Positions 3,063-6,296 of a stretch of 6,296 bases of DNA are shown here, in pieces. Within the stretch, counting starts at the first letter, position 1. Each line of letters starts with the position of its first letter. The stretch is from a virus (Duplodnaviria; Heunggongvirae; Uroviricota; Caudoviricetes). The notes below the pieces were generated by a model. That model made no database searches. It was not told the origin of the DNA and saw only the letters and a list, made by a program, of their open reading frames with translations. The stretch lies in the IMG/VR virus record IMGVR_UViG_2529292985_000023; one strand, given 5' to 3'. The position numbers were made by a program, and so were the translations under genes.

Positions 3063-3422
3063 ATGAGAATGACCAGTCGCAAAAAAGAGATACTTAGCTA
3101 CTTTGAACCGGATAACCTCGAATGGGTGACTGGTGAGATTGGTGCGCCGCCGTTCGATGTGTCGGGTGTGGCCTACCTGCTTCATGGCATGGTGTCGTTC
3201 GATAAGCGTCACCAGCTCGAATCAACCCGGCGCACACTGGAAAGCATGGTTGCTGGTGGACTGCTTGAGCGGGTGACAGTGTATGAATCGCGCCAGATAC
3301 GGCGCGGCGGTGATACTAACGCAACGGTCGTGCGCTACGGTTTACCCGGTCAGTGCGCTGTTATGCGCGATACTGGCGGCGCTGACAACGCAATATCAGG
3401 TGAATACATGCGGGTCAGTTAA
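3063..3422 (+). CDS. Hypothetical protein, 119 aa, no family recognised
   Basis: ORF with AAGGA 11 nt upstream of the ATG and an in-frame TAG 33 nt upstream; protein-like composition. 3' end overlaps the convergent gene by 8 bp. Confidence 0.5.
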   Translation: MRMTSRKKEILSYFEPDNLEWVTGEIGAPPFDVSGVAYLLHGMVSFDKRHQLESTRRTLESMVAGGLLERVTVYESRQIRRGGDTNATVVRYGLPGQCAVMRDTGGADNAISGEYMRVS

Positions 3423-3957
3423 TAGCCTGCAATCTGTCGTTGATGCGGCTCAGGTCGTAAACCCGGCGTTCAATATCCAGCATCAGGAAATTGTGGATCT
3501 CGGCCTGCTCAGGATTATCAGACTCTCTGGCCTGTAATAGCAATTCATTGTAACCATGCAAGCCGCCTGAGTTTTCCGCCGGGGTGGTGCCTTTCCCACG
3601 CAGGCAGCTAATGGGCTGATTACTCGTATCGTGTGTTTGCTTCTCCAGCACAATGACGCAATCCCACCAGTCGCCAAAGTCATACGTGTAAACCAGCTTG
3701 TCACCCTCATTCTGGAGCGCCGCCCATAGTGGCGTGATTGCCGCGTTACCCATGCTTTCATCCTCACCCCATACGCGATACTCGCTACCTGGATCACCTT
3801 TACGCCCTTTCTCGAACATATACAGGTGTTCGTCATTCCAGCCAAAAGCTAACTGGATCAAGGCATGAAGTTTACTAAAGGGGATTTGCTCTGGAACCAG
3901 CACACGCCGCCATATAGGTGGTTTGCTGTCTCGGATGGTTATCTTTAGCTGGTACAT
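3415..3957 (-). CDS. Plasmid pRiA4b ORF-3 family protein (PF07929-like; the family also annotated as IS1096 passenger TnpR), 180 aa
   Basis: N-terminus MYQLKITIRDSKPPIWRRVLVP...LHALIQLAFGW and the internal YDFGDWWD signature are as I recall for this family. AGGA lies 6 nt upstream of the ATG. Confidence 0.7.
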   Translation of the reverse strand: MYQLKITIRDSKPPIWRRVLVPEQIPFSKLHALIQLAFGWNDEHLYMFEKGRKGDPGSEYRVWGEDESMGNAAITPLWAALQNEGDKLVYTYDFGDWWDCVIVLEKQTHDTSNQPISCLRGKGTTPAENSGGLHGYNELLLQARESDNPEQAEIHNFLMLDIERRVYDLSRINDRLQAIN

Positions 3958-4077
3958 GCAAATCCTGAATAAATGCGAATCGGAAGGATAACGATACTGA
4001 CGTACTCACAATTCTGTAAAGGTGAATAAAGGAAATTTGCTTAATACGCATAAGTTACATGTGGAATAATCCCATAT

Positions 4078-4263
4078 CTACCTGCGCGGCGCTGGCTTCT
4101 TCCACTGGTAGGCAGGTGCTCGCATCATTTCGCGGAACCTGTCGCGCCGGGCTATATCGGCATTAACTGATCGTTCTATCTCCCGTTGATCTGCCTGTGT
4201 AAGCTGGTGGCCTCCGTGCTCAAGTTTGGCGATGGTCAATAAGGCTATTTCGCGTGGTGTCAT
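4078..4263 (-). CDS. Small hypothetical protein, 61 aa, basic C-terminus
   Basis: ORF with GAGGA 8 nt upstream of the ATG; same strand as the PerC-like and pRiA4b ORF-3 genes. No family recognised. Confidence 0.45.
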   Translation of the reverse strand: MTPREIALLTIAKLEHGGHQLTQADQREIERSVNADIARRDRFREMMRAPAYQWKKPAPRR

Positions 4264-4560
4264 ACGTCATATCCTCTGGAAGGATGAAACACGCCCGGAT
4301 TAAATTTCATTTTTCGCGGGTATAAAAAAACGATGGGGCGGGCAGTCCCGGATAGTCAGGGCTGTAGAGATTTGACTACCCCCTCCCCACTGTATTCAGG
4401 TTACTGCTATTCCGTTAAGCGCTGCTTACGGGGATAGCTGCGTTGTGATTTTGACCATTCAGGTCGCCGCTATTTCCTCACCGATTGGGTGCTACGCGCG
4501 CGCGTACTTGTCCCGAAATACCAGAAACCGCCAGCCAGAGGATGATTTCCCTCTGGTGGT

Positions 4561-4842
4561 CTACCTTTGCCTCTTGCCGCCATTTAACCGGAAGGCGTTA
4601 CCGTTCGGTTGCGCTATCCCCATGCGGTGTTGCGTTTCGGTAACAGCTTTATGCAGGTCGCCAAATTCCTCAACCTTCACGGGCGGGCGCTTCACGTTCT
4701 CCAGACACGTTTCACGGCGGCGCTTTATCCATTCCCGATCATCGTCCTCGGAGCATAACAGCATGACTTCCATCCATCGTGCGGCAGCTCTCCGGTATAG
4801 CCCTTTTGACTCCAGCTCTTCAGCTTTCCTGTCCCTTATCAT
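4561..4842 (-). CDS. PerC-family transcriptional activator homologue (PerC/Pch-like), 93 aa
   Basis: Translation MIRDRKAEELESKGLYRRAAARWMEVM...DDDREWIKRRRETCLENV fits the E-LE-GxxRRAAxRW-V...REWI-RR-C pattern I recall for PerC/Pch proteins. GAGAGG lies 6 nt upstream of the ATG. Confidence 0.6.
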   Translation of the reverse strand: MIRDRKAEELESKGLYRRAAARWMEVMLLCSEDDDREWIKRRRETCLENVKRPPVKVEEFGDLHKAVTETQHRMGIAQPNGNAFRLNGGKRQR

Positions 4843-4877
4843 TTCTGCCTCTCAGATTATATAGATAAGCAAAAAGG

Positions 4878-4992
4878 TGTTGGTTCAGTTGGTTCAATTT
4901 GTAAAGATCGTTGTTTTTATTATGTTTTTTTCTAAAATATTGAACCAACATCAACTCATTTTGAACCAACACAGCCCAGCTCTGAACCAACA
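4878..4992. repeat. Array of five copies of the 9-bp motif TGAACCAAC: two tandem inverted copies (GTTGGTTCA at 4879-4887 and 4888-4896) and three direct copies (4941-4949, 4962-4970, 4983-4991) phased at exactly 21 bp, separated by a 44-bp AT-rich spacer
   Basis: Read directly from the sequence; all five 9-mers are perfect matches. The array lies in the divergent intergenic region between the PerC-like gene and the RHH-like gene. Confidence 0.75.
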
Positions 4993-5057
4993 ACACAGCG
5001 ATAGCTTTGTGATTGGTCCGTTATTTTCTGGCTGATATTTGAGCGTATAACAGTGTT

Positions 5058-5076
5058 ATACAGTGGTATACTGTAT
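5058..5076. promoter_or_regulatory. Operator-like palindrome ATACAGT-GGTAT-ACTGTAT (7-5-7), preceded by tandem 10-bp units TATAACAGTG and TTATACAGTG (5046-5065); overlaps a -10-like TATACT at 5067-5072
   Basis: Perfect 7-bp inverted arms read from the sequence, 18 bp upstream of the ATG at 5094 on the plus-strand gene side. Confidence 0.4.
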
Positions 5077-5147
5077 GGATATTACTCACTGATATGGTCT
5101 TTGCAATGAGCAAATCTAATCTGATCGCGTTCCGCATCCCATCTTAA

Positions 5148-5549
5148 TTGCAGGATGAGTTTAATCGGTCTGTTCTCGCTTCTGGAGGGGATAAAACCTC
5201 CTGGCTTGTTGATGCGATTCGCATGAAGCTGGGACAGCCGGAAAAGTCTATTGATTCACGAATGCTTGGGCTGGTGGAGCGCATGGAAAAAGCCGCTGCG
5301 TCGCTTATTGCCGGAAAGCCGAACATCCCACCAAAGCCATATAACGAAACGGCAGTTATAAAGATCATTGCCGATACCATCCAACAGGGATTTGATAATG
5401 GGCGTGTGATAGCTGAACGGATCAATGAAGCAGGCTATCAAACAAAAGCTGGTAAAGCGTGGGATAAAGATATTTACAGCGCGTGGAAGCGTCAGGGAAG
5501 CAATGCTGAAAATTTAAAAGCGGTGATTGATTGTAAGGTCAGCGTATAA
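5148..5549 (+). CDS. Hypothetical protein, 133 aa from a TTG start; probably the downstream part of a ribbon-helix-helix-like regulator whose frame begins at ATG 5094 and is interrupted by TAA at 5145-5147
   Basis: Track ORF; no Shine-Dalgarno before the TTG. The same frame upstream reads MVFAMSKSNLIAFRIPS*, giving a beta-strand/helix/GG-turn/helix layout typical of Arc/CopG-type RHH domains across the stop. Confidence 0.5.
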   Translation: MQDEFNRSVLASGGDKTSWLVDAIRMKLGQPEKSIDSRMLGLVERMEKAAASLIAGKPNIPPKPYNETAVIKIIADTIQQGFDNGRVIAERINEAGYQTKAGKAWDKDIYSAWKRQGSNAENLKAVIDCKVSV

Positions 5550-5640
5550 ACATGAGTGCCCATTGGAAAGTAAGCGTACAGCCTGAACCGTCTGGTCAGA
5601 ATCTGACGAATTAGACAAAGTGGTGTCCACCAAATAAGTA

Positions 5641-6042
5641 GTGGGAACCAAAGTGTCAGATATGCAGAAAAATGTGAATCCCGGCAGGCGAAAAGGCTGC
5701 CCTAATTATCCTCCCGAATTTAAACAGCAGCTCGTTGCTGCCTCCTGTGAACCCGGGATATCCATCTCAAAACTTGCTCTTGAAAATGGCATTAACGCCA
5801 ATCTGTTGTTCAAATGGCGACAACAATGGCGCGAGGGAAAGCTGCTATTACCTTCTTCAGAGAGCCCCCAGCTACTTCCTGTGACTCTCGATGCAGCTGC
5901 CGAACAGCCAGAATCGCTCGCAGAGGATCCGGAAACCCTCAGTATCAGCTGTGAGGTAACGTTCCGGCACGGGACGCTCCGCTTCAATGGCAATGTCAGC
6001 GAAAAGCTCCTGACTCTGCTGATACAGGAACTGAAGCGATGA
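5641..6042 (+). CDS. tnpA: IS66-family accessory protein TnpA (orf1); GTG start at 5641, alternative ATG at 5662
   Basis: Translation ...PEFKQQLVAASCEPGISISKLALENGINANLLFKWRQQWREGKL is characteristic of IS66 orf1 proteins. Confidence 0.85.
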   Translation: MGTKVSDMQKNVNPGRRKGCPNYPPEFKQQLVAASCEPGISISKLALENGINANLLFKWRQQWREGKLLLPSSESPQLLPVTLDAAAEQPESLAEDPETLSISCEVTFRHGTLRFNGNVSEKLLTLLIQELKR

Positions 6043-6296
6043 TCCCGTTACCTTCCGGGACCAAAATTTGGCTGGTTGCCGGTATCACCGATATGAGAAA
6101 TGGCTTCAACGGCCTGGCGGCAAAGGTGCAGACGACGCTGAAAGACGCTCCGATGTCAGGTCACGTTTTTATCTTCCGTGGGCGTAATGGCAGTCAGGTA
6201 AAGCTCCTCTGGTCTACCGGCGATGGACTGTGTCTGCTGACCAAACGGCTGGAGCGCGGCCGCTTCGCCTGGGCCGTCAGCCCGGGATGGCAAAGT
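6039..6296 (+). CDS. tnpB: IS66-family TnpB (orf2), N-terminal 86 codons; 3' end outside the window
   Basis: ATG at 6039 overlaps the tnpA stop (ATGA). My translation MIPLPSGTKIWLVAGITDMRNGFNGLAAKVQ...GRFAWAVSPGWQS matches the IS66 TnpB family; it is absent from the ORF track because no stop falls in the window. Confidence 0.85.
   Translation, partial: MIPLPSGTKIWLVAGITDMRNGFNGLAAKVQTTLKDAPMSGHVFIFRGRNGSQVKLLWSTGDGLCLLTKRLERGRFAWAVSPGWQS

Follow-up and report, generated by a model that had tools for sequence, protein, structure and literature searches.

Ribbon-helix-helix (RHH) regulators act on tandem or inverted short repeats, among them MetJ at met-boxes, the omega protein at heptads, CopG and ParG. 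In Mnt of phage P22, residues His6, Asn8 and Arg10 read the bases of the operator. In Arc, Gln9, Asn11 and Arg13 contact bases (PMC12645479). The phage-inducible chromosomal island EcCIMP1 of E. coli MP1 moves with the help of Kapi1, a P22-like phage (Pick et al. 2025, PMC11773190); such helper-dependent mobility was shown for EcCIMP1 only. We analysed a 6,296-nucleotide stretch (the window; IMG/VR record IMGVR_UViG_2529292985_000023) that is the right end of an EcCIMP1-like island broken by insertion sequence (IS) elements. Positions 5045-5076 of the window are, with a probability of about 0.68, the operator and promoter of an autoregulated repressor gene that encodes a putative RHH protein of 147 amino acids (aa). 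Neither this regulator nor its operator is described in the EcCIMP1 paper (PMC11773190).

The element lies in a divergent intergenic region of 263 bp (35% GC), which contains the segment 5046-5092 singled out by the original prediction. On the left is a PerC-family gene on the minus strand (4561-4842; Pfam PerC, E = 1e-30) and on the right the rightward regulator gene, which ends at 5549. The 7-5-7 inverted repeat that had been predicted, ATACAGT/GGTAT/ACTGTAT at 5058-5076, was present and perfect. The two tandem 10-bp units predicted upstream of it, ACAGTGTTAT and ACAGTGGTAT, were also present, 90% identical and 10 bp apart. A second perfect palindrome, absent from the original prediction, has an 8-1-8 structure (GTATAACA g TGTTATAC) and spans 5045-5061. 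Within it are two 7-bp boxes on the plus strand, box 1 (GTATAAC, 5045-5051) and box 2 (GTTATAC, 5055-5061, the sole match in the window). Since box 1 and box 2 are reverse complements, 5045-5061 is a 17-bp two-fold symmetric site.

Inverted repeats were more frequent in the intergenic region than in 2000 dinucleotide-preserving shuffles of its 263 bp. Three repeats with 7-bp arms and a spacer of 0-8 nt were observed, two of them nested inside the 8-1-8 palindrome, compared to a shuffle mean of 0.22. The fraction of shuffles with at least three such repeats was 0.0095, and a repeat with 8-bp arms was present in 4.4% of shuffles. This excess is unusual, yet alone not overwhelming; the case for function comes from the comparative data and not from shuffle statistics.

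A scan for a standard two-hexamer sigma-70 promoter found none in the region because there is no -35 element, and the promoter was read as an extended -10 instead. TGG directly precedes the -10-like TATACT noted in the original prediction, indicating an extended -10 element (TGGTATACT, 5064-5072, plus strand) with TG at -15/-14 and the hexamer at 5067-5072. Among 95 unique upstream regions compared in fixed register, 92 showed TAnnnT and 81 showed TG together with TAnnnT, which bears out the -10 of the original prediction. Judged from the position of the -10 hexamer, transcription would begin near the A at 5079 (plus strand), 7 nt past the hexamer, with a leader of 27 nt. Box 1 would then fall at about -34 to -28 and box 2 at about -24 to -18, so that the boxes would fill the -35 contact space and abut the TG motif.

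Homologues of the 147-aa protein at 59-80% identity were widespread in Enterobacterales. About 190 loci of this order from genomes, IMG/VR and metagenomes were compared; they reduce to 99 distinct pairings of upstream sequence and N-terminus (genomes, viral contigs and metagenomes). Two operator types were found, always at the same position: GTATAAC-N3-GTTATAC (type A) and GTCTTAC-N3-GTCTTAC (type B). Type A was seen in E. coli, Klebsiella, Pluralibacter, Serratia fonticola and Buttiauxella izardii as well as in Providencia, Morganella, Proteus, Photorhabdus and Xenorhabdus, and type B in Pantoea, Erwinia, Tatumella, Rosenbergiella, Mixta, Cedecea, Chimaeribacter and Buttiauxella noackiae. The core conserved across the family consists of two 7-bp GTnnnAC boxes with centres 10 bp, or one helical turn, apart. 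Within each type the boxes carry near-maximal information (box 1 in all type-A loci), against free variation in the 2-3 nt that separate them, as would be expected where a protein binds. The distance from the first base of box 2 to the start of the -10 hexamer is exactly 12 nt in both types.

The -10 region also tracked the box type: it reads GTATA(A/C)T in type A, where box 1 is GTATAAC, and GTAAAAT in type B, where the inverse box is GTAAGAC. This likeness suggests a third, weaker site over the -10, represented in the window by the box-3-like GTATACT at 5066-5072 (plus strand), which overlaps the hexamer and is identical to box 1 at five of seven positions. Type-B loci overall have two to three boxes with a 10-bp period, and several of them (L016, L175, L185 and L188) have three in tandem. 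One E. coli-type metagenome contig (L143) lacks exactly one 10-bp unit, and its box 2 joins the extended -10. The variation in box number fits repeat-wise binding and is consistent with repeat slippage that would alter operator strength.

In every genus examined, the boxes were found alongside the 147-aa gene. One copy of the operator is present in the window and one in a 36-kb region (L118) that holds a complete related island of about 20 kb. A search of L118 for a second operator with up to three mismatches, as a regulon would contain, found none except one chance-level match outside the island. When IMG/VR was scanned for GTATAAC-N3-GTTATAC, the matches listed comprised chance matches in unrelated contigs and the known loci. 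Linkage of the operator to this gene alone supports autoregulation and argues against both a toxin-antitoxin reading and PerC as the binding protein.

Operator type covaried with the predicted DNA-reading strand of the protein. All 62 type-A sites were paired with a strand of the form x-L/I-(I/V)-A-F-R and all 35 type-B sites with (L/I/M)-S-V-T-F-R. Across 117 distinct proteins (type A, 80; type B, 37), the residue sets of the two types were disjoint at columns 5, 6, 8 and 16 of 142 and at no others, and the same columns separated the types in a set of 40 genome loci. By a hypergeometric estimate, three of four separating columns would fall within the 8-residue strand by chance with a probability of about 4e-4. 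In the C-terminal domain some type-A pairs were only 51% identical, whereas some A/B pairs reached 89%, indicating that the pairing of strand and operator holds across a deeper divergence than that of the type switch. Alternate strand residues appear to set operator specificity, a property of RHH proteins that is seen here indirectly, through covariation. The predicted link between regulator and operator was upheld in that the operator travels only with the gene across genera and its type covaries with these residues.

The 147-aa protein is likely a member of the RHH superfamily, an assignment that draws on weak but register-correct hhalign matches, predicted secondary structure and the covariation. 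In the AlphaFold monomer the N-terminus was unmodelled, residues 13-25 and 30-41 formed helices, and a long helix followed at 49-68. The model ended in a compact and highly conserved C-terminal domain that was predicted with confidence (predicted local distance difference test, pLDDT, above 90). With a glycine-containing turn between them, the two N-terminal helices would fit the RHH layout, in which a strand, a helix, a turn and a second helix span about 45 residues. The turn between the two N-terminal helices carries invariant G27, D29 and K30 followed by T/S31 (G27-x-D29-K30-T31), and hhalign aligned G27 with the glycine of N-G-R-S in Mnt. Residues 7-46 were placed on Mnt 8-47 (40 columns, probability 31%) and residues 1-29 on Arc 4-32 (probability 17%); the F-R-x-P register is the canonical one in each case. 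These alignments paired residues 6, 8 and 10 with Arc Gln9, Asn11 and Arg13, and residues 8 and 10 with Mnt Asn8 and Arg10; when the gapless Mnt alignment was stretched by one residue, residue 6 fell on Mnt His6.

The locus shares several features with P22 Mnt. Both proteins have an N-terminal RHH domain (predicted here) and an extra C-terminal region, their strands align in register, and both operators are two-fold symmetric sites of about 17 bp that overlap a promoter, with half-sites about one helical turn apart. The E. coli loci also place the gene beside a SieA-like gene and P22 gp16/gp20-like ejection genes, an arrangement that resembles the P22 order 16 - sieA - mnt (immI region). In contrast to Mnt, to which sequence similarity is marginal, the 147-aa protein has a folded C-terminal domain that is helix-turn-helix (HTH)-like and not a coiled-coil tail, and the synteny is lost outside E. 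coli. The operator stands at the gene's own promoter and not over that of a divergent ant gene, and no second operator was found. It lies about 200 bp from the divergent PerC gene, and the Mnt arrangement of an operator over a divergent antirepressor promoter, where binding represses ant and favours mnt, is not present; the divergent neighbour of the regulator gene is not conserved among loci.

Similar to the action of P22 Arc at Pant, dimers would bind cooperatively at adjacent subsites that overlap the core promoter, and residues 6, 8 and 10 align with the base-contacting residues of Arc. Arc differs in having 53 aa without extra domains, and its boxes (TAGA) are unrelated to GTATAAC. Short boxes in variable number (two to three here) are a feature shared with MetJ, omega, CopG and ParG; those of type B are direct repeats, whereas type-A boxes are inverted. 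Both arrangements would be expected, since two-fold symmetric dimers would bind pseudo-palindromic boxes. The period here is 10 bp (a 7-bp box and a 3-bp spacer) compared to 7 or 8 bp in those systems, and no co-repressor or partition function is indicated.

Taken with the fold prediction, the comparative data point to the following switch. The 147-aa protein would carry its Arc/Mnt-like RHH domain at the N-terminus, followed by a long central helix and then a compact helical C-terminal domain. One RHH dimer would occupy each box through its beta-ribbon, and the two would form a dimer of dimers along a single face of the DNA. In the E. coli-type subclade, the weaker site GTATACT over the -10 would be a third box, and its presence would create the 7-5-7 palindrome. 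Bound protein would exclude RNA polymerase from the promoter, resulting in negative autoregulation. We conclude that the site is probably an autoregulatory RHH operator. The original prediction of an autoregulated Arc/Mnt/CopG-type repressor holds as far as the operator stands at the promoter of an Arc/Mnt-like gene, is linked to it and covaries with it; binding and repression are proposed on this basis.

Several observations weigh against an autoregulated RHH repressor. A Pfam search with the full protein gave no RHH match, an NCBIfam search gave no RHH call, and a profile search against PDB sequences returned no RHH protein. The RHH_1 profile touched one of 17 N-terminal domains, and not significantly (E = 0.22). 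Across the curated family searches (Pfam, PHROGs, NCBIfam and PADLOC), which made no RHH call for the 147-aa protein, the sole matches were phrog_30270 (unknown function, E = 8e-4) and a sub-threshold HTH_62 in the C-terminal domain; fold searches gave only weak HTH-like matches, also to the C-terminal domain. The predicted RHH regulator is in this respect backed by the hhalign register to Mnt and Arc, the predicted helices and the covariation, but is not recognised as RHH by any curated profile. The hhalign probabilities are low, and the strand region (residues 1-13) was unmodelled in the AlphaFold monomer (pLDDT below 50), as would be expected for an obligate dimer. No compensatory substitutions supporting the palindrome's symmetry were found among the aligned upstream blocks, and two variants (L069 and L147) break it without compensation. 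The covariation of type A and type B may reflect a single evolutionary switch, roughly one event. Repression, as the direction of regulation, is suggested by the position of the operator only.

A different assignment of the symmetry would make the 7-5-7 palindrome itself the operator, a symmetric site on the -10 bound by one dimer or tetramer, with the upstream units as accessories. Of 32 unique upstream blocks from the enteric type-A subclade (E. coli, Klebsiella, Enterobacter-like, Pluralibacter and S. fonticola), about 26 retain the palindrome, with arms that persist although the first spacer bases vary (GG, GA, GT, TG or AG). It occurs once in the 36 kb of L118 against 0.03 matches expected, and L114, L198 and L199 have lost box 1 but kept box 2 and the palindrome. 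However, no type-B locus has it, nor do the type-A loci of Providencia, Morganella, Photorhabdus and Xenorhabdus, in which both boxes and the promoter register are retained as they are in type B. Its arms fall on box 2, on the -10 hexamer and on the region of the start, each of which is otherwise constrained: the repeat joins the 3' part of box 2 and the spacer to the -10 and discriminator. In addition, ACAGT/ACTGT can be read both as a direct repeat (4/5) and as an inverted repeat that is perfect, and much of the symmetry therefore follows as a by-product of the 10-bp tandem repeat. The uncompensated variants L069 and L147 count against this assignment as well, and we consider it rather unlikely. 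The palindrome was read as box 2 joined to a box 3 that is specific to this lineage and overlies the -10, rather than as the primary operator. The original prediction was right that an operator overlaps the promoter, but the core shared by the family is the pair of boxes at 5045-5061, its 'tandem units', and the palindrome is limited to one subclade.

It is very unlikely that some other protein binds the boxes, such as the divergent PerC/ANR-like protein, AlpA, a factor from a helper phage or a regulator of the host, and that their link to the gene is shared inheritance. The failure of curated profiles to recognise the 147-aa protein as a DNA-binding family and the chance that the A/B split was one phylogenetic event would both suit such a binder, but three of the four separating columns lie in the predicted DNA-reading strand. 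PerC is unlinked to the gene in most loci outside E. coli (17 of the 161 loci below 90% identity have it), no LexA box was present, and the full operator region had no match in 50,697 phage records. Against deposited phage genomes the operator DNA gave only two chance 19-nt matches to Vibrio phages, and tblastn of the protein against the same 50,697 records gave no match. A LexA/SOS box was rejected as a candidate, although the palindrome arms are similar to LexA half-sites: the window has no CTGT-N8-ACAG even with one mismatch, and the half-sites are everted (ACAG-N7-CTGT). RHH antitoxins typically autoregulate through palindromes that overlap their own promoters, and in E. coli loci a small gene of 73 aa (orf73) lies 80 nt downstream, as in a type II pair with conditional cooperative autoregulation. 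Yet orf73 homologues were found in 17 of 191 loci, all E. coli-type, and the 161 loci below 90% identity have none; in Klebsiella the genes that follow run convergently, no PADLOC or toxin-antitoxin profile matched, and the C-terminal half is well folded and conserved (pLDDT above 90) and not a disordered toxin-binding tail. With no conserved partner gene, the antitoxin reading was set aside as highly improbable. The chance that the symmetry acts in RNA, as a 5' leader hairpin controlling stability or translation, is slighter still. The minimum-free-energy fold of 5040-5110 does pair the palindrome arms (-17.8 kcal/mol), but its z-score was -1.41 and 14 of 200 shuffles folded equally well. The conserved extended -10 lies within the palindrome, so the transcript would begin downstream of both arms. 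Compensatory substitutions were lacking and no Rfam family matched, the only Rfam hit being a chance microRNA match in the iteron region between PerC and the operator; a known RNA family was rejected on these grounds.

Among the outlying loci, a single sequence (L095, 2523-2990) has the strand N-L-K-E and no recognisable boxes. It was considered as a third operator type and rejected, as no repeat or palindrome was found at the equivalent position, and it neither backs nor contradicts the autoregulation model. L095 and the loci that lack box 1 (L114, L198 and L199, with P4/M6/A7 in the protein) may be further specificities or decaying copies.

In the window the putative RHH regulator gene (5106-5549, plus strand) is a pseudogene. 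The intact homologues of E. coli carry the annotation of a hypothetical gene of 444 bp, with a start ATG that matches window position 5106. Codon 14 is GAA in the intact alleles and TAA (5145-5147) in the window. The TAA allele is rare, found in two of 48 E. coli-type alleles among the fetched loci (L061 and L304) in addition to the window. A TTG at 5148 opens a 133-aa open reading frame (ORF) that does not include the DNA-binding strand. The nonsense codon would leave the operator orphaned unless the same genome holds another copy that supplies the protein. The start had been predicted at ATG 5094; there is an in-frame ATG at 5094-5096, 17 nt past the palindrome, but it is in frame only in the E. 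coli lineage, and its Klebsiella equivalent is out of frame. The N-terminus M-S-K-S is kept across genera, which together with this restricted frame places the start at ATG 5106, 29 nt downstream of the end of the palindrome. The E. coli gene has no obvious Shine-Dalgarno sequence. A leader motif (CACTGATATGG, 5087-5097, plus strand) is kept in the enteric subclade while the leader on either side varies; apart from an insertion of 1 nt, it is similar to the palindrome's right arm, ACTGTATGG.

An RHH repressor that acts on its own promoter is a textbook arrangement, and the mechanism itself is unsurprising. The protein family is uncharacterised, widespread in Enterobacterales and missed by Pfam and NCBIfam, and both a function and a precise operator are proposed for it here. 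The two types present a natural specificity switch, in which three strand residues change together with the central bases of the 7-bp box. This covariation makes the recognition rule directly testable and could yield orthogonal repressor/operator pairs. The work also annotates a regulatory region beside the variable defence-gene slot of EcCIMP1-like satellites, an island end whose regulation is unstudied.

The complete relative in L118 is an island of about 20 kb at tRNA-Thr, between proA and yagU. Its genes include an integrase, an AlpA-like HTH gene, an antirepressor, Ash, a TOPRIM/DUF927 primase, P22-like ejection-protein homologues, a SieA-like gene, orf73, the 147-aa gene, PerC and a PRiA4b-ORF3 gene; every feature of an EcCIMP1-like island, from the tRNA-Thr site to the gene set between integrase and PerC, was found in it. 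The right end of EcCIMP1 (L119) matches the 119-aa, PRiA4b-ORF3, 61-aa and PerC genes of the window, which retains right-end genes only, and the segments concerned are window 3063-4842, L119 8037-10677 and L118 2009-5939. The PRiA4b-ORF3, 61-aa and PerC proteins of EcCIMP1 are identical to those in related loci, and a homologue of the 119-aa gene has equal length and position. EcCIMP1 differs in carrying alpA_1 (a Xis-like HTH gene) where the 147-aa regulator cassette stands here. The slot to the right of PerC is variable, with alpA_1 in EcCIMP1 and the regulator, orf73 and SieA-like gene in relatives of the window. PerC, orf73 and the SieA-like gene are linked to the regulator mainly in E. 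coli-type loci; below 90% identity the SieA-like gene was linked in three loci.

Downstream of the regulator, E. coli L118 (5325-5939) has a weak SieA-like superinfection-exclusion gene (phrog_7745, E = 4e-4), and Klebsiella L053 (10434-11980) has a convergent Shosta system (ShosT E = 2e-48, ShosA E = 2e-101). Anti-phage cargo beside the regulator suggests a defence hotspot at this island end, and the cargo may be co-transcribed with the regulator. We put forward, as an unlikely extension of the autoregulatory reading, that the operator types (L6/A8 with GTATAAC, S6/T8 with GTCTTAC) could represent naturally occurring, orthogonal 'immunity' specificities of a two-domain regulator not described before, RHH with a nearly invariant HTH-like C-terminal domain. 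Such a regulator would gate the right-end defence cargo (SieA-like in E. coli, Shosta in Klebsiella), with the C-terminal domain sensing a helper-phage or host signal. If this were true, the operator would serve as control point for a phage-responsive defence switch borne on a satellite and not for a simple housekeeping autoregulator.

Between PerC and the operator lies an iteron-like module (window 4877-4995; L118 3825-3946 and 11264-11354). It consists of two to five tandem GTTGGTTCA units, about 45 bp of AT-rich DNA and three inverted TGAACCAAC units at 21-bp spacing. The second copy is immediately downstream of the TOPRIM/DUF927 primase gene and has three units in tandem at 9 bp. L118 holds 11 iteron sites compared to about one expected by chance, and the module is kept in several genera, including in islands without the 147-aa gene. 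P4 has an ori/crr pair of replication sites, and the iteron modules look like a site pair of this type.

The PerC-family protein (4561-4842, minus strand) scored 31.1 bits against NCBIfam ANR_neg_reg, with a cut-off of 32. In accord with this score, Pick et al. suggest that EcCIMP1_025, which is identical to this protein, acts as an ANR-like repressor of the enterocyte effacement locus, LEE (PMC11773190). Homologues of P22-type ejection/injection proteins and a DUF2824 protein lie downstream of the primase (L118 5958-10616; L119 12598-17766) and are flagged by the same authors as packaging or hijacking candidates (PMC11773190); despite these homologues the island has no capsid or tail genes.

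The island remnant is heavily disrupted at 1-2834 and 5570-6296 of the window. The left part contains IS1-like and IS3-family transposase ORFs (127-2319) and a C-terminal integrase fragment (2331-2834). On the right, the end of a multicopy element begins at about 5570 and is followed by a transposase-like ORF (5641-6042). This insertion, read as a probable IS66-family element, replaces the genes that follow the regulator in intact islands.

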